The notes beneath the pieces are model-generated. The model had not been told where the DNA came from, searched no databases, and worked only from the letters and a program-made list of their open reading frames with translations. Of a DNA stretch of 64,000 bases, positions 2,468 to 64,000 are shown one piece after another. Positions within the stretch are counted from its first letter, which is position 1; each line of letters starts with the position of its first letter. The translations under genes were made by a program, and so were the position numbers. This DNA comes from Amphiscolops sp. MND2022. Lineage: Eukaryota. The stretch covers positions 71,178,001-71,242,000 of the forward strand of contig OZ076409.1 in assembly GCA_964187785.1 (NCBI GenBank). The letters run 5' to 3'.

Positions 2468-2999
2468 ATAATGAATAAAGATCAAGCCGTCATTGACTAC
2501 AATGCCACTGACAGCTACGCTAGCTATCCTGAACAGGCAGATATTTGACGGCGCCTGTCTGCCTGTGAGTATAGTTGTCTTATCAAATAATGATTGATGC
2601 ATTTATACAAAAAATTTTACAGGTTTGAAAAAGCAAATTATACAACTGTTTTGAAAACTTTAGTTTGTAGTAAAGGAATGGTTCTGGGTAAGGCAGTGTG
2701 TCTTGCTTTGTCTATCGTGTTGGGGTCGCCATCACATGCGGCAGCCTGCGACAGATACAGCGCCAACGGTTGGAATAAAGCGAATTTTCGATCGAAACAA
2801 AAACAGCGAATTCGAGAAGTGTGTTATCATGATTCAAATTGAAAGAATCCGATTTTTGGCACTTGTTAGATGCGAACACTCGCTCTGTAGGACAATTTGG
2901 TTGCAGTTGTTCACGTTGAAAAGAATGGTTGTGTGACACCCTCGGAGCAAGAGCCGAACTTTGGGTACAGGTCTTTCAGACTTGGCAATAGATTATCGC

Positions 3000-3414
3000 T
3001 ATACTTGCAATAAGTGGAAGTTAGTCAAAGTTTTGACTAACTTACACCATGTTTATATGCATTCAAAACTCAGTGTTCATTTTAATTCCAATTCATACCA
3101 CAGCATCGTAAACCAGTCAAAGTAAACAATGATTCAATAAATAATTAGTTATTACTGAGCTCTACCGTGCATAGTACGTATAAACTGCATTCAATGCAAG
3201 TTGCACACGTGAACACGTGTGTTTCATCCACGCATTTACGTGCAAATAAAATACCTTGTAGCTTCTAATTAGTACAATTGATTGATCTGTCAACAGGTTT
3301 CCTATTTTAACAAAACATAATTTCAAAGCAGCCCTCATTAATAGTTGCCTAACATTTATTTTGGTCCCTGTCGTGAGCACAGTCACCGGAATGATTGGAT
3401 AACTTGTTATTTTG
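3000..3414 (+). repeat. Left arm of a ~420-bp inverted repeat pair
   Basis: Near-identical reverse complement of 8576-9003, e.g. ggtccctgtcgtgagcacagtcaccggaatgattggataacttgttattttg vs caaaataacaagttatccaatcattccggtgactgtgctcacgacagggacc. Confidence 0.9.
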
Positions 3415-6073: not shown

Positions 6074-8195
6074 TTGCTGTTTTGCTTCAAATACATTTCA
6101 ATGACTTCAATGAGTGGAGTAAAAATTATTTTCAACGTTTTTATGCAATTCTTGTGGAAAAATTTGAATCGTTTTGATCATAATCTGAAAAGGTGTTCAA
6201 AACAATAGCAGTCGACATCCACTTGTTTTTTTGAAGACATATTTGCAAATCGGTGTTTGAAAAGAAAACTCAAATGACCTAAAAATTGTCAAAACATCGA
6301 AATTTTCGTTTTCGACAATTTCAGTGATTGTTTGTGGAAAGCTTCTTGAGTTTAACGGTTTTAAAAGTACAGAATACTTATCAAAGTATTCAATACGCCT
6401 TCAAAAGGAAAACTTGATAGCTTTCTAGGTAGAACAATATCTCAATGGCCCCAATCCCAAATGTTTTTCGAATTTCGTGTAATTTTAGAACTTTGCGAAA
6501 TTTCGTATGCTAGAAGAATGAAAACTTTCAACAGCAAACAACTTCGTTGTACAGTAGGCTTTTTGGAACTGAATCGCAGTCTCGCGCTAGAAAAGACACA
6601 AAATAATCTCATAAAATTTTTCCAATCTTATGGACACTTTCAAATATAAATAAGAGAAATTGTGTATTTGAGAAATTTCAAAAAGGTGTAAACGATATAA
6701 TTGGGTGTGCATTAAATTTTCAAAAAACTGATTTTGCAGTTTTGTATGTAGAAAAGTACCTCAGAATGACCATAAGTGATTGAAAAATCCAAAAGTTTTA
6801 GACGTTTTTTGCGAAGTTTGGTGAAATTTTTGAGCTACTTAATAGATTAGATTTTAGATTGGTGTAAAGATTCAATTTTTTCCTTTATAAAAATTTTTTC
6901 ACTTGAAACTTCTTGACATTTTCATCGCTACTCTTGAGACTCGTAATTATGTCGTTGCTAGAACAGTTCGGACGGAAAATATCCCGCTGGTCAGCGGGCG
7001 CCTTGTTTCTTAAAGCAGCTATTAGTGAATACGCTGTTTTAAAATGGACACTTGTTTTATTCAACTGGAGTTAGGAACTGGAGTCAGCAAGTTGGCGGAG
7101 GAAAAGAATGAGCAACTTCCATGTAGCCTTTGATAGGGGCGCTTCTGACTGTGTATTTTGGGCGCCTTTGACTAGGGCGCTTTTGTCTGGTAACTGTTAT
7201 TGATGTATCCATGGAGCGTTCCTGTAAGTTATTATTCTAGTAAAGAGGTCATTTCTATTGATATCTATTCTCATCAGAAACTACGGACTGCAAAACAAAA
7301 TCAAACCTTCCATTCATACTGACAATGTTGAGTTTTGCATGTTTCGGTTAAATTCGACAGTATTATTACCGAAAGTAAAAATATTTTATATTGCTAAAAC
7401 AATTTTGAACCAGTTTGATTCAACTGTCGCGGCATTTCAGATTCGAAATTTTAATTTGCGAAATTACTTCGGAAGAAATTCTAACAATGTTCCGGTGCCT
7501 CTTGCTTGGGGTTGATAAATTGCGCAATTTTACTGAGAGTGGTTTCTTTAGCGTTATCGCCTTCAATTCCTTTGGCCCATCGAGCGATGGTGTTTGAATT
7601 TCATATGACAGGCCACAAGTTGACCAACAGTGGATTAGCTGTTTACAGAAACATAGAAACCTTTTCATGCTTGAAACTATGTATGATTCACCCGCAATGC
7701 ATTTCCATAAATTGGAACCGAAAAGGATTTTGTCAGCTAAACTCTCAGGATAATTATTCGTTTAAGAGTATTCTCCAAATCGATCCCAATTTCAACTTTT
7801 CTGGAATTTCTATTCTATTGCACACAACATTCTAACACGGCATAAATGTAAAAAAACTACAAAAAGTCTCTAAATTAACATGTGAATGAAGTTTTACAGA
7901 ATTTACGGCTAGTATCGTCACCACAATAAATTTTTAAAAATGTAATCATAAGGTTAGCTATAAAAAGTTTGTTAGTTTTCAATGTTAATTTGTTCCATCA
8001 TTTGATCAACGTGTATAATGTCTCCTCTGTCGTGCTGGGGTTCATGTAAAACAGTATAAGACCTAGTATCGTCGTTAATTTTTTCTCCAAACAACTGCTT
8101 CCACGAAAAGTTGATACTTCTGCATTATGGGAATAAAAATTCAACAGCTGACGTTTAAAATTTTTTCATGATTTTATATCCAGATGTTACAATTT

Positions 8196-8575: not shown

Positions 8576-9003
8576 CAAAATAACAAGTTATCCAATCATT
8601 CCGGTGACTGTGCTCACGACAGGGACCAAAATTAAAATTAGTTAGGCAACTCAGGCTATTAATGAGGACTGCTTTGAAATTATGTTTTGTCAAAATAGGA
8701 AACCTGTTGACAGATCAATCAATTGTACTAATTAGAAGCTACAAGGTATTTTATTTGCACGTAAATGCGTGGATGAAACACACGTGTTCACGTGTGCAAC
8801 TTGCATGGAATGCAGTTTATACGTACTATGCACGGTAGAGCTCAGTAATGATAACTAATTATTTATTGAATCATTGTTTACTTTGACTGGTTTATGATGC
8901 TGTGGTATGAATTAGAATTAAAATGAACACTGAGTTTTGAATGCATATAAACATGGTGTAAGTTAGTCAAAACTTTGACCACATTCCACTTTTCGGAAGT
9001 ATA
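8576..9003 (-). repeat. Right arm of the ~420-bp inverted repeat pair
   Basis: Reverse complement of 3000-3414; ends ...ggaagta-ta. Confidence 0.9.
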
Positions 9004-9014
9004 GGAGTCCCTCA

Positions 9015-9245
9015 ATTTGCAAAAAGTGGAAGTTAGTCAACGTTTTGACTGACTTACGAAAAAGAGTATTTTTGGACTAACTTCCGCTTTTTTCTAATTA
9101 CGTGTTTTGACTAACTTACACAATTTTCCATTACGCGCGTTGATTTTGCTACACCGTTGAAGCATAGACCGTCTTGACTAACTTACGCTGAATGACCATT
9201 TTACCATTTTACTCAGATTACGCAGCTTGACTGACAGCAGCTTAC
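9015..9245 (+). repeat. Cluster of ttgact(a/g)acttac subrepeats related to the inverted-repeat terminus
   Basis: ttgcaaaaagtggaagttagtcaacgttttgactgacttac matches 3005-3045 in direct orientation, followed by further (t/g)gactaactt(a/c)c copies at ~9075, 9108 and 9175. Confidence 0.7.
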
Positions 9246-9264: not shown

Positions 9265-10968
9265 TAACTTTTTTCCTGTTGGTTTAAAACTTTAGGACCC
9301 TGCTAAAAGTTTCTTGACCATGTTGCAGGGGCTCCGGAGGTCCAAACCAAATTTTTCTAGCTTGAAGCTATCTCCAAGTACCCCCCCGCCCAAAACGTTA
9401 TTTTTCCGGAAACGCAGGTTTTTGACCCGGAAGGAGTCGTCTGAGCGCGGGGTCGTTAGGTGATGTTTTGGGGACGGCCTTGAGACGAAGTGGGGGACAT
9501 GTAGTTTGTCAACCTCAGTTTACCCCCCGGACAGGAAATGACCGTTATATGAGCGGGAAAATTGCCCCCCTCCACGTTTTACCGCTATTTCCGGTGTGAA
9601 GGAGTGGGAGTAGCGCGTCGGGTGCCATATATCAAAAGTAGGTTCAGACAAGGACCTATCGGAAACATGTGGTTTGGGACCCCCTGGGCCAACCCGTTAG
9701 CGGGAAATGGGGCTTCCGCCTCCTTTTTTTACTGCTAAAACCGTAAAATGGGCATTGAGGGGTAAATATCTCGTGAACGCGTGGAGCAATCGTGTCCATC
9801 ACTACTACAAGGTTTCATACCCATGATATGGTGCCTTCAGGGGGGCAAACAGATTTCCGCTATCTATCACCGTTACCGACTTGGCCCCCCAGCCTAACCG
9901 CTATGTGACCGGAAATGTCACTTTTTGAGCCCAAAGGGTCGGTCCCAGCCGGGGAACGTTAGGTAACTTATTGTAGTACTCAATGAGACGAGTTGGGGGA
10001 TATAGTTTCAGTCACCCCCCGTTACCCCTTGGGACCGGAAATGACCGTTATGTGGGTAAAATTGCAATTTTTATACTTTTTCAAGTGTATTTAGGTGCGG
10101 AAGGCGTGGTAATAGGTGCTTGGACACTATATGAGGTAAGGGAGGACGTGAGGCGAGCATTCGGAAATAACCGTTATGTTGACCCTAAAGTCCCCCTGGT
10201 ACCGTAAACGACCGGAAATGGTCAAATTTTGTGTCTATTGGGTACAAATGTTTAGTATTTTGTAGATAAAAGTATCTATTAGGTGTTTCGACGGTCTGCA
10301 ATAGTGAACATAGTCATGGAACTTTGTAGGGGGTAACGGGGTATATAGCACCGGAAGTCCAAACCGTTGGACACAGGATAGGTTTTTGGTTTGAAAATGT
10401 CTTTCGGCGTACTTTTGTCGACTATTATGGACTATTATTAAAAATTAAAGTTCTTCCATATAGTTTCAGAGACTCCGAAACCTCAACCAACATAACCGTT
10501 ACATTTTGATAGCCTTTCAAGTTGGCCTGGTGTCAACTTGGAAGCGCTATCCTTCTGAAATCGTTAATCAAGTGTGTTTTTGAGAATGTTTGTATTACTT
10601 TAGAATCAATTAGAGCTTCAAGAAAAGTTTGCCAACGACAAAAACTATGTCGTGATGATTCCATTATTAGAATATTAGTTAACAAAATGTTGATAAAGTT
10701 GATTTTTTACATTTCAAAAGTGTCCCAAATGCCAGAAAACCTCTTTACCAAACAAATGGTATTGATTGGATTGTATATAACAGCTAATAAAAGTTCAAAT
10801 TGAATATTACGTTTATTATGCAAGCTGAAATATCATATTATAGTTTCATTAACGTCAACGCCACATACTTTACATCAACGCCCACCGTCTGTGGGCATGC
10901 CGAGGCATGCCCTTCGACGACGTATACCAAATTCTTCCAACACAACACCCCCGAGCGCGTTAGCCTAG
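9265..10968 (+). repeat. Family A cassette, 5'-truncated by ~270 bp (first unit of the array)
   Basis: Starts at taacttttttcctgttggtttaaaac, which lies at offset ~270 in the full unit 18535-20509. Confidence 0.9.
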
Positions 10969-10971
10969 GTG
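10855..10971 (+). other. Conserved cassette 3' end (example copy): TCAACGCC direct repeats, GGGCATGC-CGAG-GCATGCCC stem-loop, tail, CTAG^GTG junction
   Basis: Hairpin at 10893-10912, junction at 10965-10971; an equivalent block closes every unit. Confidence 0.9.
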
Positions 10972-12962
10972 CGGGGGGGTAACCCCAACTTTTTTCTTGG
11001 AGGAATCGGGTAGGGTCCTGATTCCGAGTTCAGTGCCGCCAGCTATCGTTAAAAACCTATACCTTTTAAACCCGATCTCGAGAACTAACCACGCCCCTTC
11101 TTTAATTTTTTGGCCCCCACTCACTTTTTGATAGTAGATCGCCCCCCACTGGGTTCCAAGTTGGGCAAAAATGGAGGTCATGGGTAACGGGGACCGTTAA
11201 GGGGTAACTCAGGGGGTAAAATTTATTTTTTGCGTCATATCTTTTCCCCCCGTGGATTTAGCGCTTCCGGTCAGCAGACAAAACCTCATGTACGTGATAC
11301 GGGGCCTCCATAGGTCCAAACAAAATTTTTCTATCATGCACCGTTACGGACTTGGCCCCCCGGCCCAACCGTTATTTTACCGGAAATTGCACTTTTTGAC
11401 CGGGAAGGAGTCGTCTGAGCACGGAGTCGTTTGGTAATGTTTTGTAGTGTATCTGGAGACGTGTTGGGGGACATGTAGTTTGCCGGCCCCAGTTTACCCC
11501 CCGGACGGGAAATGACCGTTATGTGAGTTTTAAAATTACCCCCCTTCAATTTTCCCCGTTATTTCCGGTGTGAAGGAGTGGGAGTAGCGCGTCGGGTGCC
11601 ATATATCAAAAGTAGGTTTAGACGAGGACCAACCGGAAACATGTGGTTTGGGACCCCCTGACCCAACCCGTTAGCCGTTATAAGGGTGATCGCCTCCTTT
11701 TTTTACACTCAAAACCGGAAAACGGGTATTGAGGGGTAAATATCTCGTGAACGCGTGGAGCAATCGTGTCCATCACTACTACAAGGTTTCATACCCATGA
11801 TATGGTGCCTTCAGGGGGGCAAACAGATTACCGCTATCTATCACCGTTACGGACTTGGCCCCCCAGCCCAACCGCTATGTGACCGGAAATGTCACTTTTT
11901 GAGCCCAAAGGGTCGGTCCCAGCCTGGGAACGTTAGGTAACTTATTGTAGTACTCATTGAGACGAGTTGGGGGACATAGTTTCAGTCACCCCCCGTTACC
12001 CCTTAGGACCGGAAATGACCGTTATGTGGGTAAATTGCCATTTTTGTACAATTTGGAGGGCATTTAGATGCGGAAGGAGTGGTAATAGGTGCTTGGACAC
12101 TATATGATGTAGAAGAGGACGTGATGCGAGCATTCGAAACTAACCGTTATGTTGACCCCTAAGTCCCCCTGGTACCGTAAATGACCGGAAATGGTCTAAT
12201 TTTGTGTTTATTGGGTACAAATGTTTGGTATTTTATGGATTAAAGTACATGGAAGGTGTTTCAAAGGCCTCCAGAAGTGAACATCGTCATGAAACCTTGT
12301 GGGGGGTAACGGTATATAACACCGGAAGTCCAAACTGTTGGCCACAGAATAGGTTTTTTGGTTTCAAAATGTCTTTAGGCGTAGTTTTATGGGTTGAATC
12401 GTCATAATATCAACTATTACGGACTTTTTTCGGAAATAAAATTTTTTCACATTAGTTTCAGAGACCTCCAATGCTTCAGTCAACATAACCGTTACATTTT
12501 GATAGCCTTTCAAGTTGGCCTGGTGTCAACTTGGAAGGGCTATCCTTCTAAAATCGTTAATCAAGAGTGTTTTTGGGTAGGTATATGTTGCATTAGTACC
12601 AATTAGAGCTTCATCAACAGTTTGCCAACGGCAAAAACGATGTCGTGATAATTCCGTTATAAGAATATTAATTAACAAATTGTTTACAAAGTTGATTTTT
12701 TCCATTCGAAATGTGTCCTAATGCCACCAAATTGAATAAAATAATAAATGGTATTGACTAAAACTAAATAACATTGAAAAAGAAGATCAACATTTTTAAT
12801 AGGTCTCATTATGGAAGCTGAAACCTCACGTTTTAACTTAATTAACGTCAACGCCACATATTTTTCATCAACGTCCACCGTCTGTGGGCATGCCGAGGCA
12901 TGCCCTTCGACGACGTATACCAAACAAACTCCATATCTACTCCCGATTGCGGTAGCAGCTAG
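10969..12962 (+). repeat. Family A' cassette (1994 bp)
   Basis: Starts GTGCGGGGGGGTAACCCC; body near-identical to 56031-58025. Confidence 0.9.
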
Positions 12963-14955
12963 GTGGGCGGTAGGTTTCCCGTAGTCAAAAAAAAATTGCA
13001 GGCCGGGGTAGGGGCCCTGGCCGAGGCAAAATACCATAGAAAAGGTACCAAATTATGTGAGTTTAGAAAATTGAGCCATACAAATTCTCTGAAAATTGCT
13101 GTGTGTACCCTATCGCCCAATCTAAGAACTTTGTCCTGCTGACGTTTTGCTCTCCAAATGTTACTAATATGACTTTTTGAAAAATTTATCTCTGGTTTTT
13201 CATCAAAAATAGTGATTTTGGCAATTTTTGTGAAATATCTCTGATTGCATTAATTTTTGGACGTTGACTGTGAAACAAGCTCGGAACCATCATTTCGTGA
13301 CCATGGCAATGCACTAAACACAAAAGATGTAGAGTTTTTAAATTTTTTGAAAATTTGACATTTTTAAATTTTTTTCACTACTATCAGTACCATATATGTC
13401 AAAATAACCTCAGAAAAATTTTTTTATTTTATTTAATTTAGAATCCTTGCTATCCATGGTTTCTGTTAGTATCTACTCGCTCCCAGAGACTCAACAGTTA
13501 GCATCGAATCTGAAATTAAAAATTTTTTCGAGGTCATAGGTGTTTCACAAGGATTTCACAACATAGTCTCGTTTTACAAATAGGTCATTTACAACATCAT
13601 ATTTTCATCGAGGCATGTCGGATATAGTCTTATTGCTCACGAACGGTCCTACTGGCAACGTAATAACCATTTATTGAAATATAAAGTTTTAAAAAAATCT
13701 TTTCACATGTTCTTCAAACATTTTTCAGACATTCGGAACTTAACTTAGAAAAATTTCGTCTCAAAAACCCATTTTTCGTCAGGTCGAAATTTGAAATTCA
13801 GCTTTTGAAGCACAAATATGCACTCTGACGTAACCAGTAGGGCCAATGATACTCAACAACACCATTGAGACTGGTATCAGTCGCTCCAAAAACATATGAG
13901 CCGTGATAAGACGTTTTTTCAACAATACTGTTCAATTGATGTAAACATCGCGGAAGCCTTGGATTACAGTGAAAGTTGATTTGAACAAAAATTTACTCTT
14001 TTTTGTCAATCACTATGTAGACAGAATGCGTAGGGTAAGTTTCAGCACTAATATGAAGATTTTGAAGGAATCGGGTTGCTCAAGGCGTGGTATGAGACAC
14101 TTTTTTCTCATATACTAGTGTTTTTCAAAACCTTTTCGTTAAATATCTCGAAAAGCAAACATTAAAAAATACTTTCTGATATCTAATTTAATTCCTAGAA
14201 TATAAATGAATCATGTGGTTGATCAGAAACTCTCTACTTTAATGTTTCAAGAAAAAAATCCCTTCCCATGTTTTATATCTGTAGCAGTAAAAAAAGTAGA
14301 CGCTAAAAAATACGCTATTTTGCTAAGATTGAATTGCAATTGTTTAGCTTTAAAACTCTTTTAATACTTCTAACGCCACCTTAAGGACTCAAGATGATTG
14401 AAAATGTCAATCACAATGCTGACATGTAGCCTTTCTACGATCCTGGCTGGACAGATTTTGGTTATTTTTCAAGTACCTGTTAACTGAATCTCGTGATAGC
14501 CTTCTAAGTTGACCTTCTGCGTCAACTTGAGAAGGCTATCACTAAAATAAACTAAATTCTGATTTGTTTGTTTGTTCCTAACGTCTTTTGGTACGATCGT
14601 CTTACGGTTAGTTGGTTAAACCAGGTCGCTTATACTTCCACAATTTTCGACCACCGTCCGTGTATTCGGTTCACACGACTTTACATTTTCAGTCGTTTGT
14701 TTTCGATAACTATCACAATGTACTGCCATTAGCGCCAAATTCATACTAGTACTTGGTTGGTTGAAATACTTAAACAACTGTTTCCATAGTTATTCGCGGT
14801 GATGGTACAATCCGCGCGCCTACATACCTACGGCGTCTTGTCACTACAACGCCACATAGGGAAACAACGCCCATAGTCCGTAGGCATGCCGAGGCATGCC
14901 TTTCGACGACGCGCGCCAAATCTATGCGCGCCCGCACTTGTGCGGTAGCTGCTAG
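12963..14955 (+). repeat. Family B cassette (1993 bp, singleton, AT-rich body)
   Basis: Starts GTGGGCGG. Unique body, but it has the 5' hairpin (13001-13022), the gatagcc hairpin (14493-14542) and a core hairpin variant (14882-14901). Confidence 0.85.
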
Positions 14956-16343
14956 GTGGTTGGGGCGGTCCCCAGAACGCACAAGGAGGCGCGGGGAGGG
15001 TCCTGCGCCGACGTAGAATAATTTCATATAATACTAGTATCCTACATGGGTGTTTTAGAGGCGATTTTGGAATCTAACCGTAGGATTTGGATAATTTTTT
15101 GCATGCGGCCATAACTCAAAATTCTAAGAACTTTTTCCTACTGTCATTTTCCCCGCAAATTGTTTTTTGTTGACTTATGGCCGAAAAACCGGAAATAACG
15201 TCCTTTTTAGACGTTATATCCGAAGTGTCGTCATAACTTTTTTCCAGGGCATGCTAGCGTTCTCGTTCACTTTTACACTTAGTTGCAGCATCTCAAAATA
15301 CAACTGGTGGAAAATTTTGGTTGCATTCGGATCACCCCCCACCGAGATAGAAGGGTTCCCCCCTCCAGTTTTACCCCCCAAATTTGCGAAAAAGCCAATT
15401 TTGAGCATGAAGACGAGGATTTAGCGTACCCGCACTCTTCTGATGTTTTGTTGTACGTATTGAGGTCAATCTGACCACAAGTGTGGTTTTCACCCCCAAC
15501 CCCCCCTGGGACCGGAAATGACACTTTTTTGTGTTTTTTGGCAGAATTTAGCCTTTTTCATTATTAGGCAGTCGTTTTAGGGACTCCTAGCAGGATATCG
15601 AAATTGAAATACAACCTGATCACAACCCAGTGACAACATGTTGGCCACTTGGAGGTATCATCATGACCGGAAGTGGGGTCAACCCCCCTTTTTGTGACCG
15701 CTTTTTGACCTTGTGCACCAAAATGCCAACATCTTGAGGCCTAATGAGGCATTCAAATCTGTACAAAGATAAAATGTTAGACAACCGAAGTCCCGGAAGA
15801 TCTTTAGCATATACCGGAAGTTACCCCCCATGACCGGAAGTTACCCAATGTGACCGGAAATGGTCCAAAAATTAATGTAAAGTTGAATTTTTCACTATTC
15901 CAAGACCACTTAATTGAAACTTTTCAATCTCAAAACTAGCGTACTGGCTTGTTTTGCTGAATTTATGGAAATTGATGAGCTCTATTACCCCCGATAGCCT
16001 TCGAAGTTGACCTTGCGTCAACTTTGGAGGCTATCGATACTGAAAATGAACAAGAAAGTACATTGTTGCCCTCGGTTTTTTCCCGTTGTTTTTCCTCAAA
16101 CTTTCTTGAGACATATACATGGCCGTTAGTTGAAATCAATATTTAGCCCATGTTATAGCTGGAGCAGCGAAGCGTTACACAGACTAGTGTGGTTTTGAAA
16201 TTACATTATTTAAATTAACAACTGACCGTCTTAGTCAACTCCACACATTCATACCAACGCCCACCGTCTGTGGGCATGCCGAGGCATGCCCTTCGACGAC
16301 GTATGACGAATCCACTCCAACGACACCCGCAGTCCTCAGCTAG
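14956..16343 (+). repeat. Family C cassette (1388 bp)
   Basis: Starts GTGGTTGGGGCGG; near-identical to 59429-60817, including the tail. Confidence 0.9.
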
Positions 16344-18534
16344 GTGGAGGTTATTTTATAATAATTAAAGTGTTTTTTTCCGGAGTTTGTGGCTTTGGAA
16401 AAAACAAAAGGCGAGAAATTGGGCACTCCGGGCTGAACCGTATACACTCAAAATTCGCCCAATATTTATACGATCTCGAAACCCAGCCGTACGATTTGGC
16501 TGAAAATTTGCATGCGGCTAAAGAATCAGATTCTAAGAATTATTTCCTGCTGACAATTTTTTGAAATTTTTGTGTACGTTTCCCCCCCGCCCCCTAAAGG
16601 GGTCAATTTTCCCCAATTTTGCACTTATGAGTCAAATTCTCAAAACTGGTGGATCTGAGCGCATTCCCGACGGGGACAACTTTTAACAATCGCTCTTCAG
16701 TAGACCATTTTGAATTTTTACTTTGGTGGTACGTTCACCCCCCAAGGAGGAAATGGCGTTTTTGTGACTTCCGGTCGAGACTTTTTTCACCCAAAAAATA
16801 GAAATAAGCCAGTTTTGAGCAGGAAGGAGTGGATTTAAAGTGTCTGTACCCTGCTAAAAATTTGTTGGGCTTGTAGCGATATATCTCATACCAAGTCTGG
16901 TTTTCACCCCCAAACCCCCCTCGAGACCAAAATTCACCCAAACGTTTTACCTCTATTTGTGGTTTTTTCACAAAATGTCGTCATTTCCATCGGCAAAGAT
17001 TTGAATTAGGGGCTCCTAATAGGGTACCAAAGTTCAAGTACACTTGGAGTGCAACTAAGTGACCCTTTTTGGGCCTCTCGTGTGTTCGGCAATGACCGGA
17101 AGTGGTATTAACCCCCCTTTTTTGACGTTTGTTGACCTTGAGACTCGTGCTTAGATGACGTTTATGTCGCGCAAATCCTACAAACCAGTATTAGGATGAC
17201 ATGCTAGCCAACTAGAGAGCAATAAGGGAAACTATACTATACCGGAAGTAACCCCCTCTTGACCGGAAGTTGTCATTTTTGACCGGAAATGGTCCAAAAC
17301 CTAGCGTGAAAGCAGTTTTTCATTGCTTTTAAAGTCAACTTATTACTTTTTTCACTCTGCGCGAGCTTGCCTTCAGGTTCGTTAGTGTTGCCCGTGCACA
17401 CTGCAACAAATATACATCTGTAACATTTTCGCTATAATATCGTCGGAGAGAGAAATAACGGGTTTTTGGGATTTTTTTCAAAAATATTAGTCTTTATCTG
17501 TCATTTTTACCCAACGTCGTTATTGAACAGTAGAACCATAGGGGTTAGTCTTTGCCCAAATATATGCCTAACACAAGCACTTGTCCCATTGGTTGCAGTT
17601 TGAGCGTTCTAGCTTTGCCTGGTCACAAGTTAGGGGACTTGAAAAACTTTCAAAATCATTTCCGAAATTTTTTTCTATACGTCACGTCTCCCAAAGTTAA
17701 GAAACTTCCTCACAACTAGGACTGCAAGTGAAAGCATGTGGTAAGACCTATAAATGGAGAGAAAAACTCCGTTTAGAACGTCTCTTTATCGTAACGTGAC
17801 GTTAAGAGATGTTGCTTTGAATGTGAGTTTGATAATGCGTCGAGAAGTAAAAGTGTGAAAATGGAACCTTTGTCTCGATAAATACTCATCGCAATACTTG
17901 CGATGAACCCCAATTACCCTCAGTTTCAGTTGCTTAGTACATCAACGTCCTCCAAGGACCTTTATCTATTTTGAAAAGTGTCGAAATCATTATTAAAATC
18001 AGTTATCAAGAAACACTTGAGTACATTCTCATCTCTCCCCATCGGGTGAGATGAGAATGTTCTTGCTAAAAGCCAGGTACTACGGCCCCCTTTTGTTTTG
18101 ATGCGATGCATTCTCTGCTTTAGCACATAGATATTTTATTTCGCCTCATTGTTTGTATACTCTCTGACTTGTTGTTATAAATCTCTCGTCATTACTTTAC
18201 ATAAATATACAACCGAAAATCATCATCGTCACGCCACATACATTTAGACGCCCACCATTCCGTAGGTATGTCGAGGCATACCTTTCGATTACGAATGTCA
18301 AAACGCAAACGCGATAAAAAGTGATGAATGTCTGAAACAGTGACAAACACTTTTGACTATTTGACATATGGTAGGTTTTAATATGGGAGTTACACATCAC
18401 TGACATTTCACATCATTCCAGCTGACGCCCACATACCAACAACAACGCCCACCGTCCGTGGGCATGCCGAGGCATGCCCTTCGACGACGTATGCCAATTT
18501 CTGTAAATCTACACCCAATTGCGGTAGCGGCTAG
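16344..18534 (+). repeat. Family D cassette (2191 bp, composite, duplicated core hairpin)
   Basis: Starts GTGGAGGTTAT; similar to 20510-22686 at both ends. Confidence 0.85.
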
Positions 18535-20509
18535 GTGCGGGGGGGTAACCCCTACAAAGATATTGGAGGATTCGGGTAGGGTCCTGAATCCGAGTTCAGT
18601 GCTGCCAGCTATCGTTAAGGGATTTTAGAAAATTTTGCCGATCTCGTGATCTAACCGTAGGATTTTAAAGTTGGAGCGGCCCCCACCAGATTTTCCAAAG
18701 TTATTCGCCCCCCACCGGGTTCCAGCGTGATTGAAATATTTTGACGGGGTACACGGGCGACCGTTAGGGGTCATTTTGGGGGTAAAATTTATATCCGGTC
18801 GCATAACTTTTTTCCTGTTGGTTTAAAACTTTGGGACCCTGCTAAAAGTTTCTTGACCGTGTTGCAGTGGCTCCGGATGTCCAAACCAAATTTTTCTATC
18901 TTGAAGCTATCTCCAAGTACCCCCCCGCCCAAACCGTTATTTTTCCGGAAACGCAGGTTTTTGACCCGGAAGGAGTCGTCTGAGCGCGGGGTCGTTAGGT
19001 GATGTATTGGGGACGGCCTTGAGACGAAGCGGGGGACATGTAGTTTGCCGACCCCAGTTTACCCCCCGGACGGGAAATGACCGTTATTTGAGCGGGAAAA
19101 ATGCCCCCCTCCACGTTTTACCGCTATTTCCGGTGTGAAGGAGTGGGAGTAGCGCGTCGGGTGCCATATATCAAAAGTAGGTTTAGACAAGGACCTGTCA
19201 GAAACATGTGGTTTGGGACCCCCTGGTCCAACCCGTTAGCAGGAAATGGGGCTTCCGCCTCCTTTTTTTACTGCTAAAACCGTAAAATGTGCATTGAGGG
19301 GTAAATATCTCGTGAACGCGTGGAGCAATCGTGTCCATCACTACTACAAGGTTTCATACCCATGATATGGTGCCTTCAGGGGGGCAAACAGATTTCCGCT
19401 ATCTATCACCGTTACCGACTTGGCCCCCCAGCCTAACCGCTATGTGACCGGAAATGTCACTTTTTGAGCCCAAAGGGTCGGTCCCACCCAGGGAACGTTA
19501 GGTAACTTATTGTAGTACTCAATGAGACGAGTTGGGGGACATAGTTTCAGTCACCCTCCGTTACCCCTTGGGACCGGAAATGACCGTTATGTGGGTAAAT
19601 TTGCAAGTTTTATACTTTTTCAAGTGTATTTAGGTGCGGAAGGAGTGGTAATAGGTGCTTGGACACTATATGAAGGAAGGGAGGACGTGAGGCGAGCTTT
19701 CGAAAATAACCGTTATGTTGACCCCAAAGTCCCCCTGGTACCGGAAGTGACCCGTAATGGTCAAATGTCGTGTTTTTAGGGTACAAATGTTTGGTGTTTT
19801 ATGGATAACAGTGCCTATTAGGTGTTTCGACGGTCTGCAGTCGTGAACATAGTCATGAAACCTTGTGGGGGGTAACGGTATATAGCACCGGAAGTCCAAA
19901 CCGTTGGAGACTGGATAAGTTTTTTGGTTTTAAAATGTCTTTCGGCCTACTTTTGTCGACTATTGTGGACTATTTTTCGAAAATAAAGTTTTTCCATATA
20001 GTTTCAGAGACTCCGAAACCTCAACCAACATAACCGTTACTTTATGATAGCCTTTCAAGTTGGCCTGGTGTCAACTTGGAAGGGCTATCCTTCAAAAATC
20101 ATTAATCCAGTGTGTTTTTGAGTATGCTTGTTTTACTTTAGAATCAATTAGAGCTTCGAGAAAAGATTGCCAACGACAAAAACTATGTCGTGATGATTCC
20201 GTTATTAGAATAATAGTTACCAAAATGTTGATAAAGTTGATTTTTTACATTTCAAATATGTCCTAAATGCCAGAAAACCTCTTTACCAAACAAATGGTAT
20301 TGACTGAATTGTATATAGCAGCTAATAAAAGTTCAAATTGAATATTACGTTTCATTATGCAAGCTGAAATGTCATATTATAGTTTAATTACCGTCAACGC
20401 CACATACTTTACATCAACGCCCACCGTCCGTAGGCATGCCGAGGCATGCCTTTCGACGACGTATACCAAATTCCACCCACACAACACCCCCGAGCGCGGT
20501 AGCAGCTAG
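18535..20509 (+). repeat. Family A cassette (1975 bp)
   Basis: GTGCGGGGGGG start, A body, CTAG end. Confidence 0.9.
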
Positions 20510-22686
20510 GTGGAGGTTATTATATATCAATTAAAGTGTTTTTTTCCGGAGTTTGTGGCTTTGGAAAAAACAAAAGGCGAGAAATTGGGCACTCCAGGCT
20601 GAACCTAAAAACACCCTAAAATTGGCCCGATTTTTTTACGATCTCGAAACCCAGCCGTACGATTTGGCTGAAATTTTGCATGTGGCTCCTAATCAATGAG
20701 TAATGAAAAAGTGTAGGAGTGACTTTTCCTGAAAAAATTGTTTTTGTTGCACTTTTTGCGCAATTTTTGACCGATTGTTGCGTTTTTTATGTCACTTTTG
20801 ACTTTTCAGGCAAAAAACTCATGGATGCTTTGATCCTAGCGCATCAAGTGTTTCGACCAAAAAGTTGCAGCATGTTCTTTTACGTATGTTGAGAAAATTT
20901 GGTTGCCATCGTATTACCCCCCACTGAGATAGAGGGGAACTTCCGGTGGAATTTATGACCCTAAAAACGAGGACCTCCTAAATTTCAGCATGAAGCGGTA
21001 GTTTTAGCGTGCTCATACCCTGCTGAAACTTTGTTGGCCATAATGAGATAGTCATGATATCATGTGTTCAGTTCAACCCCCATCACCCCCTGGACCGGAA
21101 ATGAACTTTTTTGTGCACTATCATACCGGAAGTCTCCAATTTCACCGTTAAGCAGTCCTTGTACGAGCAACTACCAGGACATCAAAATTGAAAAACCACC
21201 TGAGGTCAACATAGTGACTACGTGTTGTCCAGTCATAGGTTCCGCTATGACCGGAAATGGGGTCAAAAGCCCCTATTTTGGTTGTTTTTTACAATTTTAC
21301 TAGTGTTTGGTCCACATTCAAGTCGCGTAAGTGAATTGAATCAGTGTGAGCAAAAACTGTATGTTCACTGCGTAGACGTAACTGACACTGGCAGATACCG
21401 GAAGTAACCCCCCGTGACCGGAAGTTGTCAGTTTCGACCGGAAATGGTCCAAAATGTAGCGTAAAACTAGTTTTTTACTGCTTTTTAAAGTCAACTTATT
21501 ACTTTTTCAATCTCCGCGAGCTTGTAATCAGGTTCGTTTTTGTTACCCGTGCACTTTGCAACAAATATACATCTGTAAAAGTTTCTCTATAATATCGTCG
21601 GATAGAGAAATAACGTGTTTTTGGGACTTTTTTTCAAAAATATTAGACTATATCTGTCATTTTTACTCAAAGTTTTTCAACTGTACAACCACAGTATTTA
21701 GTCTCTGCCCAAATTTTTGCCTAACAAAACTATTTGGCCCATTGGCTTTAGTTTGAGCGTTCCAGCTTTGCGTGATCATAAGCTAAAGGACTTGAAAAAT
21801 TTTCAAACTTTTTTCAAAAAAAACTTCTCACATTCATATCTCCCAAAGTGAAGAAACTTCCACACAATTAGGATTGCAAGTGGATGCACGTGGCAAGCCC
21901 TATAATTGAAGAGAAAAATGCCGCATAGAACGTCTCTTTATCGTAACTTGACGTTAACGTATGGTGCTTTGAATGAGAGCTTGATAAGAGGTCGAGAAGT
22001 CAAAGTGTGTAAATGGAACGTATTTCTCGTCGAAAACTCACCGGAATTCATGCAATGAACCCCAATTGTTCTAAATTGCAGTTGCCTACTGCAACAACGT
22101 CTTTCTGGTACATTTACCCATTTTCATAAGTGTCAAAATTATTTTTGAATTCAGTTAGCAAGAAACACTTGAGTACATTTTCATCTCTCCCAAGCGGGTG
22201 AGATGAGAATGTTCTTGCTAAAAGCCAGGTACTACGTCCCACTTTTGTTTTAATGCGACACATCCTCTGCTTTAGCACATAGATAGTTTATTTTGCCTGA
22301 TTTTTTGGATACTCTCTGACTTGTTATTATAAACTTCTCGTCATTACTTTACATGAATTTACAACCATAAAGCGTTATCGTCAACTGCACATACATTTAG
22401 ACGCCCACCATTCCGTAGGTATGTCGAGGCATACCTTTCGATTTCGTATGTCAAAACGCAAACGCGATAAAAAGTGCTGAAATTCTGAAACAGTGATAAA
22501 CAATTCTGACAATTTGACATATGGTAGGTTTTTATATGGAACTTAGACATCACTGACATTTCACAACATTCCAGCTGACGCCCACATACCAACATCAACG
22601 CCCACCGTCCGTGGGCATGCCGAGGCATGCCCTTCGACGACTTATGCCAGTTATTTATATCTACACCCAATTGCGGTAGCCGCTAG
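20510..22686 (+). repeat. Family D cassette (2177 bp)
   Basis: GTGGAGGTTAT start, E-like middle, duplicated core hairpin at 22417-22436. Confidence 0.85.
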
Positions 22687-34633: not shown

Positions 34634-37600
34634 GTGCCGGGATTTCTATTCGTTCGAGTATGTGGCGCGTGTGGGTAGGGCCCCTGGCGCGCTCTTGTGT
34701 TTCGGGTTTTCCTACTCCTAAACCGCGTTCAGATTTTCGGGATCTCGTAAACTAGCCATACGATTTGGCTGAAATTTGGCACACAGCTCCGTTGGAACAT
34801 TGTAAGAACAAATCCCTACTGACGTTTTGCCCGCTAAACATTTTTTGTTGGTCAAAAATGCGATTTTCCGACAAAATTTTTGACTTTTTTTCACTTTTCA
34901 GTCTATATCTCGCCACAGGGTTACGCTAGCTACCCTAAACCCTGCTAATTATAATTTGCAATCTGTCTCAGGAATGCGGTGTGAAATTTTCAGGTCAATC
35001 GGACTTAAACTCAGCGAGTTAGAGCGATTTTTTAGGTGCATTTTTTGACATTTTTTGCATTTGCCGATTTATCTCTGCCGTTTTTTGCCAAAATTTTTTT
35101 TGAGACACTCTCCTAAAGACCTCCCCTGGCCGGTTTACCTCCCAGCAAAACCATTTGGCCCTAAATACGAAGTTTTAGCGTTCTAGCATTCCCGGGCGAA
35201 AAGTTGTGGAACTTAGAATAATTTTTTGGAAACGCAAAATGTGTAAAGTCAACTTCAGGCCTCCCAAAGTCAAGGAACTTCCACACAACTAGGATTGCAA
35301 GTGGATGCATGTGGAAAGTACTGGGATAGACGAGAAAAATGAGCTATAGAACAACTCTGTAGCTTAACCTGACGTTGACTTATGATGTTTTGAATGTGTG
35401 CTTGCTAAGGGGTCCGAAATTGAAAATTTTTAAAGAAAATTAATATCGTCAAAAATTCATCGGAATGCCTGCAATATACAGTAGAGCGTGTTCAATTGTA
35501 GCTGACTAATGCATCAACGCTGTTCAAGGTCTTTTAACTCAGTTTCAAAATTTTTTACACTGTATTATCCATCCGAGAGTTCGAAACAGTTGAGTACATT
35601 CCATCTCCCTCCCGAGGGAGATGAGAATGTACTCGCTAAAGTCCAGATACCACAACCCATATTTGTTTCTCTGCGACGCAAATCTTAGATAGTGCACGTA
35701 ACTACCGGTCTTTTGACTGAAATTTGTATTTACATTGACGTGACATATGCTGAACGTTCGGTTCTTACAACATACGCATGACTAACGTCAACGCCACATA
35801 CTGTTACCAACGCCCACCGTCCGTGGGCATGCCGAGGCATGCCCTTCGACGACGTATGCCAAATACCTTTGAACGACGCGCACTCTCCCGCTAGGTGCCG
35901 GGATTTCCATTCGATAAGGAATTCTGCGCGTGTGGGTAGGGCCCCTGGCGCGCTCCTGTGTTTTCGGTTTTCCTACTCCAAATTCACACCCCAGTTATCT
36001 CCGATCTCGTAAACTATCCATACGATTTGGCTGAAATTTGGCACACGTACCCCCCTCGGCACGGTGAAGATGATTTCCTACTGACGTTTTTCCCGCTAAA
36101 CATTTTTTGTTGACCAAAATAACGGTTTTTGGTGGAAAATTTTCAACTTTTTTTAAATTTCCTCTTATATCTCGCCCCAGGTTTACGCTAGCGCTTCAAA
36201 ACCTTGCTGACGAAAGTTTGCAAACTGTCTCAGGAATGCGGTGTGAAATTTTCAGCTCAATCGGACTCAAACTCGAGGAGATATAGCGTTTTTCCGGAGC
36301 GGGGGGGTTTCATTTTTCTAACGGTCCAGCGTATCTTTGCCATTTTTTCGAAAATGCACTCGCCTAAAGGCCTCCCCTGGCCGGTTTTACTCCCAAAAAA
36401 ACCATTTGGCCTTAAATACGGGGTTTCAGCGTTCTAGCATTTTCGGGCGAAAAGTTGTGGGACTTAGAAAATTTCAAAAATTTTCAAAAATTTTTTTTCC
36501 GTTATTTGGGCCCCCAATGTGGGGGAAAGGACCCCCCAACCAGTATTTTGAGTGAATGCATGTGCAAAGCGCTTGTTTAGAGGAGAAAAATGTCGTTTAG
36601 AACGTCTTTTTATCTTTACTCAACGTTGACTTATGACGTTTTGAAGGTGATGTAAAGAGGTGTGAAGCACGTGAAAAGTAAACGTTATGAGTATTTATTT
36701 GATCTGAAAGCCATTCAGATGCAATCTGATTTGCCCAAAACGTAATTCATTTCAGTTTGGCAGTCAATCAACACCCTTTGTTGTCGTTTGACATTTTTTT
36801 TTGTTGATATAATAAAAAATTTTGTGTAATTATTTATTTTTTTCTCATCAAATAACTTGAAACAGTTGAGTACATTCCATCTCCCTTCCCGGGGGAGATG
36901 AGAATGTACTCGCAAAAAGCCTCGAACTATGGCCCTTACCTTCCCGAGCTACGCAGTATAAAGATTGCATATTGGTTTCGACATTTTGATAGAGTTATAT
37001 CTTGGTAATCTGTCTGGATATGCAGAAAAATCAGCACGTGCCTTTTTATACCAAGTTGCTCACAACGACAATTATTTTATATCAACGCCCCCATATTTAT
37101 CAACGCCCCCCGTCCGTGGGCATGCCGAGGCATGCCCTTCGACGACGTGCACCAAGATATACCCCAAGCGCGGTAGCCGCTAGGTGCCGGGATTTCTATT
37201 CGATAAAGTATGTGGCGCGTGTGGGTAGGGTCCCTGGCGCGCTCTTGGGTATGATGTTCACCAGCTAGGAAATAGGGGTCGATTTTTCGGGATCTCCTAA
37301 ACTAGCCACACGATTTGGCTGAAATTTGGCACACGTACTCCCCTCGGCACGGTGAAGATGATTTCCTACTGACGTTTTTCCCGCAAAATTTTTTTTGTTG
37401 TCCAAAATAACGGTTTTTGGGGTAAAATTTTGAACTTTTTTTAAATTTCATCTTATATCTCGCCACGGGTTTACGCTAGCGCTTCAAAACCCTGCTAAAG
37501 AAAGCTTGCAAACTGTCTCAGGAATGAGGTGTGAAATTTTCAGCTCAATCGGACTCAAACTCGGGGAGATATAGCGTTTTTCCGGAGCGGGGGGGTTTCA

Positions 37601-63371: not shown

Positions 63372-64000
63372 GTGCGGGGGGGAAACCCCATCCCTTATCT
63401 TGGAGGATTCGGGTAGGGTCCTGAATCCGAGTTCAGTGCCGCCAGCTCTCAGTAGAAATCTGGGCATTTTTTTGCGATCTCGTGATCTAACCATAGGATT
63501 TTAAAGTTGGAGCGGCCCCCACCAGATTTTCCAAAGTTATTCGCCCCCCACCGGGTTCCAGCGTGATTGAAATATTTTGACGGGGTACACGGGCGACCGT
63601 TAGGGGTCATTTTGGGGGTAAAATTTATAAAAGTTCGCATAACTTTTTTCCTGTTGGTTTAAAACTTTAGGACCCTGCTAAAAGTTTCTTGACCATGTTG
63701 CAGGGGCCCCGGAGGTCCAAACCAAATTTTTCTATCTTGAAGCTATCTCCAAGTACCCCCCCGCCCAAACCGTTATTTTTCCGGAAACGCCGGTTTTTGA
63801 CCCGGAAGGAGTCGTCTGAGCGCGGGGTCGTTAGGTGATGTATTGGGGACGGCCTTGAGACGAAGCGGGGGATATATAGTTTGCCGACCCCAGTTTACCC
63901 CCCGCACGGGAAATGACCGTTATATGAGCGGGAAAAATGCCCCCTCCACGTTTTACCGCTATTTCCGGTGTGAAGGAGTGGGAGTAGCGCGTCGGGTGTT
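63372..64000 (+). repeat. Family A cassette running off the window edge
   Basis: GTGCGGGGGGG start, A body. Confidence 0.9.

Follow-up and report, generated by a model that had tools for sequence, protein, structure and literature searches.

A head-to-tail array of non-coding units joined at an invariant heptamer, with features of Helitron-like rolling-circle elements

Overview

From position 9265 to position 64000, the window (the whole 64,000-nt stretch of eukaryotic DNA that was analysed) is an unbroken head-to-tail array of non-coding units that fall into ten families by BLAST grouping. We put it at about an even chance that the units are non-autonomous Helitron-like (HUH) rolling-circle elements whose end junction doubles as their insertion target. 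There is reportedly a plant study on centromeric Helitron arrays, and the usual explanation for tandem Helitron arrays is that they are concatemers of one element. In this array, ten families follow one another in mixed order across 33 exact joints, an arrangement that would need insertion directed at the joint itself. Tandem arrays as such are known from the available parts of three sources (PMC12001565, PMC11934779, PMC5876387). In the accessible sections of the literature, subscription papers and Repbase aside, we found no account of numerous non-autonomous families linked through a single exact end junction.

If the Helitron-like reading is true, the array would be an example from nature of site-specific integration by an HUH enzyme in a eukaryote, with a target of 7 bp and a cargo of flexible length. 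It would also show how a transposon can hide in its own array and how mobile elements can turn directly into kilobase satellites. The conserved 55-nt right-end block together with the joint makes a precise probe for an autonomous partner and for circles, and it is the partner enzyme that decides whether the array is more than a variation on known elements.

Organization of the array

Units were delimited by cutting at each CTAGGTG. On the + strand of 9265–64000 this gives one 5'-truncated unit lacking about 270 nt of its start, 32 complete units of 1261–2191 nt, and one unit cut by the end of the window. All 32 inner units are full length, and neither poly(A) tails nor 5' truncations were found within the array. 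Eight of the ten families (F0–F9) can be aligned with one another over long stretches of the body at roughly 60–85% identity; F0 and F6 have little in common beyond the shared motifs. Unit lengths cluster in classes common to distant families (1261–1290, 1388–1403, 1971–1995 and 2177–2191 nt). Indels within families are mostly of 1 nt (99 of 127 gap runs in F0) although divergence ranges from 1 to 18%, and unit length seems to be under constraint. The F0 unit at 10969–12962 has an internal duplication, its positions 318–560 being 72% alike to 821–1063.

The window holds no stop-free frame longer than 139 amino acids. There are 29 of 100–139 amino acids, and the longest ATG frame within a unit encodes 136. 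No Rep, capsid, transposase or recombinase gene was recognized in the window, 17 of the 29 frames having been scanned for domains, and no autonomous copy of the units is present in it. Rfam gave no match at gathering score and five weak ones far below it. Because no transposase, solo copy or circle was seen, we infer both the enzyme and the circular forms discussed below.

The window is eukaryotic DNA, probably from an animal; its first 9 kb contain simple repeats, further interspersed repeats and a frame that carries a Pfam PAN domain. This stop-free frame (7485–7835, + strand) matches PAN_1 with an E value of 7e-06, above the curated cut-off, and is the one such match among the 17 frames scanned. 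It lies between inverted arms at 2999–3414 and 8576–9004, which are 94% alike with about 5.2 kb between them and no long frame, and it is a host exon or a captured fragment. Degenerate extra copies of the arm motif occupy 9005–9057, directly before the truncated first unit, and a foldback-type element probably cut the left end of the array. The same 16-nt start of a different interspersed repeat, unrelated to the array, is found at 1962 and 3474. The telomeric hexamer occurs 26 and 32 times on the two strands, in about equal numbers, and not at the joints.

The right-end block

All 33 right ends share a 55-nt block made up of a direct repeat, a linker, a hairpin and TTCGACGAC. In the first unit (U01, + strand), a first direct repeat, moderately conserved across families, lies at 10855–10862. 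The second, at 10875–10882, starts the block; the hairpin follows at 10893–10912, with a 9-bp stem, a 2-nt loop and the same palindromic 8-mer in each arm, 10 bp apart. TTCGACGAC (10913–10921) is invariant in 11 of 11 family rows and corresponds to what the preliminary description had called a third repeat; it may be the 3' arm of an outer stem formed with the linker. The right end of U16, an F1 unit, has the same layout on the + strand at 37082–37186, with its repeats at 37082 and 37100, hairpin at 37118–37137 and joint at 37180–37186. The 20-nt hairpin occurs 33 times in the window.

The repeats reported earlier are borne out: TCAACGCC is found at 10855, 10875, 37082 and 37100, and the degenerate third copy downstream of the hairpin is 10/14 identical, as claimed. 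The window contains 44 exact copies of TCAACGCC, all on the + strand, against 1.70 expected from shuffles (largest shuffle count 6). Both upstream repeats match at 7/8 or better in 27 of 33 units (U32 counted with a 1-nt shift), the first being weak in U05, U07, U11, U12, U30 and U33, and the second repeat and the hairpin keep a constant spacing in 31 of 33. The proposed fourth copies in the tails fared less well. With the repeat itself as query, they are not clearly above chance (48 versus 44.1, p 0.057), whereas a looser pattern, fitted after inspection, is found in 17 of 33 units and in 4 of 10 representatives versus 0.65 expected (p 0.003). Fourth copies are therefore doubtful.

Across families, conservation of the block far exceeds that of upstream DNA (0.91–1.00 versus 0.46, ungapped). 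Column agreement was calculated over 11 rows, the ten family representatives plus contig L001 (described below), with the two relic rows of alignment A1 left out. Agreement is low ahead of the first repeat (0.45), rises to 0.77 within it and 0.82 over the five columns that follow, and drops to 0.51 in the spacer. It is high again in the second repeat (0.93), linker (0.95), hairpin (0.98) and TTCGACGAC (1.00), then falls to 0.87 over nine further columns and to 0.53 in the tail. The first repeat scores 6.2/7 in the ten representatives, compared with 3.37 in 310 upstream windows, and it stands out from its surroundings. The second is no better kept than the linker, the hairpin and TTCGACGAC, and is therefore, like the third, part of one continuous 55-nt block. 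On the Helitron-like reading, the direct repeats are likely subterminal sites at which a transposase binds the right end.

All 13 rows pair at 100% in the main hairpin, where two pairs have changed in both partners (6 cells, 0/500 shuffles), a covariation count that is inflated by related rows. In 11 of 11 working ends the linker and the third repeat could form an outer stem, and its sequence does not vary. The hairpin sequence is more invariant than pairing alone requires, the core folds better on the opposite strand in 10 of 10 cases, and the region 10850–11040 folded as a whole is no better than shuffles (z −0.78). A p53 response element consists of two RRRCWWGYYY decamers with a spacer of 0–13 (PMC3485254, in the part available). 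Taken as two such decamers without spacer, the hairpin matches the consensus at 19 of 20 positions in all 33 units, and both of its stem-end variants retain the match; the next best site in the window has two mismatches and occurs once. Binding by a p53-family protein, as predicted from this match, could be compatible with the Helitron-like reading.

The joint and the unit boundary

CTAGGTG occurs 33 times in the window, always on the + strand and once after each hairpin. The joint consensus is S-CTAG-GTG-S-N-N-G, its specified letters being fixed in 33 of 33. After U01 the joint lies at 10965–10971 (+), preceded by a variable tail at 10931–10964 (+) between block and joint. The boundary falls within the heptamer and is drawn after CTAG by analogy with Helitron ends, which is also where the nick would be placed. 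No unit begins with TC (0/33), GTG follows CTAG in all 33, and the 32 complete units all have GT...AG ends. The hairpin-to-joint distance varies from 38 to 58 nt, taking 13 values without helical phase (resultant 0.16), which fits a tracking or single-strand reaction.

What fixes the boundary is the behavior of the tail. Tails resemble each other where the units' own upstream bodies do (Mantel r 0.42, p 0.0005) and show no relation to the heads that follow them (Mantel r −0.02, p 0.62); a single tail end precedes six different heads. The tail thus travels with its own unit, and the units are therefore cut and joined inside CTAGGTG and not at the hairpin or conserved block. The origin location proposed in the preliminary description has to be moved accordingly, since the cut-and-join point lies 38–58 nt past the hairpin, outside the interval to which the origin had been assigned.

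Mini-hairpins in the tails reach z below −2 in 4 of 27 distinct tails, with two more at −2.0. A circle-origin stem-loop, formed by a tail with its own head and carrying the joint in its loop, looks good in some F0 copies and was rejected as a general feature: only 5 or 6 of 27 tails pair best with their own head, and permuting at the family level yields p values of 0.21 and 0.53. GC skew flips around every joint, from −0.21 in the 60 nt before it to +0.30 in the 60 nt after it.

The left end, internal hairpins and relic ends

Each unit starts with GTG and continues with a left-end hairpin at about 30–65, shared motifs near 108 and 183, an A/T-phased body (AA/TT peaks at 10, 20 and 30 nt) and one of two long internal hairpins, before the repeats, hairpin, TTCGACGAC, tail and CTAG of the right end. 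The left-end hairpin of U02 is at 11002–11025 (+); its loop motif is kept and its stem sequence varies between families. The loop motif is present in eight of ten families and in L001, F7 and F8 having a different hairpin there as judged by eye, and the F3 stem is weak (z +1.2). Among 100 positions in ten distinct stems, 65 are Watson–Crick, 11 G–T, 1 A–C and 23 other, the G–T excess being partly expected from a G-rich strand (GC skew +0.30), and U02 and U06 differ by a two-sided swap. Stems that are specific to a family suggest single-stranded DNA. The 3' palindrome is not repeated at the 5' end.

One internal long hairpin, at 12506–12538 (+), typifies F0, F2, F4 and F6; the other, at 36868–36911 (+), typifies F1, F3, F5, F7, F8, F9 and L001. 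NANTATTAC is found at 10802, 20340, 24493 and in seven more F0 copies, in or beside a variable F0-specific hairpin and not in its loop.

F7 and F8 carry a relic second hairpin (18264–18283 and 22417–22436, both +). In F7 it lies 195 nt upstream of the working one, has one pair changed on both sides and is not followed by CTAG. This older end is colinear with F9, and its tail reaches GTG 37 nt after the hairpin without CTAG. The arrangement looks like an old end that lost its CTAG and was replaced by a new end 195 nt further on, resembling the 3'-end bypass of Helraiser. A piece of the left-end loop motif lies 50 nt past the GTG beyond each relic end (18321 and 22474), and the last 213 nt of F7 and F8 may be an internally deleted mini-unit.

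Unit order and exchange between units

Copies that are 98–99% alike lie 25–45 kb apart with different neighbors (U02/U29, U04/U31, U10/U27). Same-family neighbors are commoner than chance (13/33 versus 6.7, p 0.002); only 2 of 12 compared same-family neighbor pairs are at least 98% alike, and the array is therefore not a set of fresh concatemers. U02 and U29 are 98% alike but their tails differ, so exchange has also taken place within or before the core. Four-gamete conflicts rise with distance, from 275/4500 near (6%) to 9619/49899 far (19%) in F0 and from 110/374 near (29%) to 1438/2031 far (71%) in F1, which means that units also recombine internally and are mosaics.

Matches outside the window

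The core pattern has one match in metagenomes, the 1172-nt contig L001, which represents an eleventh family. Its block is 100% identical over 51 nt, and the body resembles F1 at about 70%. The joint, 52 nt past the hairpin, reads CGAG|GTG, and the left end beyond it carries the same loop motif. An independent record thus shows both the design and the tandem joint, and the T of CTAG is not strictly required. No match was found in viral contigs, plasmids or prokaryote genomes. The sole match to a joint-plus-left-hairpin pattern, a viral locus (L002), was dismissed as chance, with no BLAST match to any unit. Among assembled contigs of the one sequencing run listed as sharing sequence words (X1; 0.16 of words) compared with 10800–18600, 28 fit in part, 11 of them less than 90% alike, with parts of the stretch uncovered; the pieces listed include no unit end joined to outside DNA over the parts they cover.

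A Helitron-like model

In the proposed mechanism, each element would run from GTG to CTAG on the + strand. A transposase presumably encoded elsewhere in the genome would bind the conserved block, repeats and hairpin, as the mark of the right end and would nick at the next CTAG|G, 38–58 nt downstream of the block's hairpin. A nick at one joint and a stop at the next would release one unit as a circle, whose own end-to-start joint would have the same sequence as an array joint. On such a circle, the right-end repeats would also form the upstream half of the origin. Because the joint is the putative nick site of the enzyme, a chromosomal joint would be the preferred acceptor; resembling the circle junction, it could serve as start and stop for release and as acceptor for a new unit. 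Each insertion would recreate two joints, so that families pile up in mixed order and single orientation, and later recombination between units would produce mosaics and swapped tails. The mechanism as a whole would account for the exactness of the joints, the uniform orientation, the mixed order and full length of the units, the variable distance between hairpin and end, and the relic in F7/F8.

Precedents exist for the separate steps. The available text on Helraiser describes a hairpin and CTAG end, exact end-to-start circle junctions and end bypass that gains a new end (PMC4778049), and its transposase cleaves the plus-strand junction precisely (PMC5876387, in part). An HUH relaxase can insert incoming DNA at a copy of its nick site that is already resident (PMC3264647, in part). 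Combining these facts into a mechanism for the array is our inference by analogy. Several observations weigh against the model. No transposase or autonomous copy lies within the window, the asymmetric inverted repeat beats shuffles in only one of ten families, and the pairing of tails with their own heads is not family-specific. L001 ends in CGAG, not CTRR, units do not begin with TC, and the hairpin stands 38–58 nt and not about 11 nt from the end. The invariance of the hairpin goes beyond pairing, with the better fold on the other strand, and both the differing tails of U02 and U29 and the excess of same-family neighbors count on the same side. Described Helitrons, as far as the available sources go, target AT, TT or telomeric repeats and not their own joints.

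A bolder version, to which we assign a minor share of probability, is that the units belong to an undescribed eukaryotic rolling-circle group, distinct from HLE1, HLE2 and Replitrons, that integrates only at its own end junction. Its non-coding families would be stored as a cassette array from which any unit could be released as a circle, the p53-like site tying release or silencing to a host DNA-damage or germline factor.

Competing explanations

The units could instead be cassettes, excised and reinserted as double-stranded circles by a tyrosine (Crypton-like) or serine (IS607-like) recombinase that crosses over in CTAGGTG, with the direct repeats as arm-type binding sites. The size of the invariant core, 7 bp, agrees with the overlap used by tyrosine recombinases (6–8 bp) and with the short direct repeats at the ends of Cryptons (PMC3212892, in part), and the core holds GG, the crossover site of IS607 (PMC10711439, in part). 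Single orientation and joint regeneration are explained, and unit order equally well. We nevertheless regard this as unlikely: no 11–13 bp inverted repeats flank the core, the block-to-core distance is unphased and without fixed geometry, the family-specific stems point to single strands, and the window contains no recombinase gene. Animal Cryptons, according to the available text, lack terminal repeats, so that an element of this kind is still conceivable (PMC3212892). A Fanzor/IS607 origin was rejected; mollusc Fanzor2 elements, as the accessible part of PMC10711439 describes them, have inverted repeats and target duplications, which are absent here. The preliminary description had taken the hairpin and its flanking iterons for the origin of integrated CRESS-virus-like or plasmid-like replicons or satellites, which we consider very improbable. 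Its origin-like layout holds up, in that the block is conserved far above upstream DNA, repeat-to-hairpin spacing is fixed and units are modular. As in gemini- and nanovirus origins, so far as their available descriptions go, repeats lie on both sides of a stem-loop at a fixed distance from the stem; in addition, the block is common to all families, sizes fall in few classes, and NANTATTAC lies 91–92 nt before the hairpin in 10 of 13 F0 copies. As a CRESS-type nick site, the hairpin finds no support. CRESS-DNA origins are nicked in a nonanucleotide loop and have short repeats beside the stem-loop at fixed spacing (PMC10653810, in part), whereas here the loop is of 2 nt and NANTATTAC is confined to F0, in a stem arm or unpaired DNA, with 13 matches on the + strand versus 7.8 expected. 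The boundary is not at the hairpin, the window has no Rep or capsid frame, and viral contigs, plasmids and prokaryote genomes gave no match. The likeness to multipartite segments falls away too, since the units carry no Rep or other gene and eight of ten families align in their bodies, unlike the gene-bearing segments of a multipartite virus. The CRESS model thus fails on the position of the nick, and the general idea of an origin survives.

The array could also be a complex satellite. An old amplified element would have diverged into families and been shuffled by ordinary unequal crossing-over, its block kept by binding of a host protein, a candidate being a p53-family tetramer. The p53-consensus hairpin in every unit agrees with this, as do the mosaic units, the 10-bp AA/TT periodicity and the clustering of like families. 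It is still quite unlikely in our judgment: homologous exchange should take place in the 55-nt core sooner than in a 7-bp word, but tails stay with their own units; a degenerate consensus would tolerate changes among the 18 inner bases, all of which are fixed; all 32 inner units are full length; and the invariant joint and left-end hairpin are left unexplained. The GT...AG ends of 32 of 32 complete units and their structured ends would suit intron-like or spliced-leader-related units spread via an RNA step, which we consider very improbable. Measured against the splice donor consensus, position +4 is C or G and never A, and +5 is G in 14 of 33; L001 ends in GAG; no Rfam match reaches gathering score; and poly(A) tails and 5' truncations are missing inside the array. 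If a gene lay across the joint, tails and the heads after them should be correlated, and they are not; a spliced-leader gene spanning the joint was rejected on this independence, as was a ribozyme or small RNA gene on the negative Rfam result.

Relation to known mobile elements

The Helitron-like reading places the units near two described groups. HLE1 elements are recognized by a 5'-TC and a hairpin near the end, and HLE2 elements by asymmetric inverted repeats and a TT target, according to the available parts of PMC11417382, PMC4067079 and PMC5148889. Of the HLE1 features, the units have the 3' CTRR (CTAG in 33/33, the exact cut inside the heptamer being assumed) and lack the 5'-TC and a hairpin 10–12 nt from the 3' end; of the HLE2 features, they have hairpins at both ends and lack asymmetric terminal inverted repeats, T-rich termini and a TT target. 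The comparisons that follow extend as far as the accessible text of the sources. Canonical Helitrons (HLE1, e.g., Helraiser) likewise have a 3' CTAG after a GC-rich hairpin, no terminal inverted repeats, a more variable left end and new ends gained by bypass, with head-to-tail junctions and tandem arrays reported. Unlike them, the present units have no 5'-TC, a hairpin whose distance from the end is 38–58 nt and not about 11 nt, direct repeats upstream of that hairpin, mixed-family arrays with exact joints and no visible AT target. Helitron2/Helentron and HINE/DINE-1 elements (HLE2) share a hairpin near each end and a palindromic subterminal element 38–60 nt from the 3' end, and self-insertion is discussed for FoHeli of Fusarium (HLE2). 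They differ from the present units, which end in CTAG, lack a 5' counterpart of the 3' palindrome and have neither T-rich ends nor a TT target.

Non-canonical, target-specific Helitrons exist as well (PMC13085455, in part). Those at Paramecium chromosome ends are similar in their non-canonical ends, sequence-specific target, single orientation and several alternative right ends; there, CCAA ends are flanked by telomeric repeats, whereas the joints described here have no spacer at all. [quoted passage not shown] The shared heptamer, one per joint, could be such a terminal repeat, and membership of the units in this group is conceivable. They are reported from algae, plants and protists, and the available text does not contain the word "metazoa" or describe mixed arrays (PMC10288648). 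Cryptons and IS607-type elements resemble the units in a short shared crossover word and a proposed circular intermediate, and differ in that flanking inverted binding sites, fixed geometry and a recombinase are absent here. The CRESS-DNA origins of gemini- and nanoviruses have comparable iterated short repeats beside a stem-loop at fixed spacing; their nick lies in a nonanucleotide loop, unlike the 2-nt loop, distant boundary and gene-free units seen here. On the favored reading, the units work like a Helitron and are members of neither group, mixing the CTAG of HLE1 with the two-ended hairpins of HLE2 and a palindrome 38–60 nt from the end.
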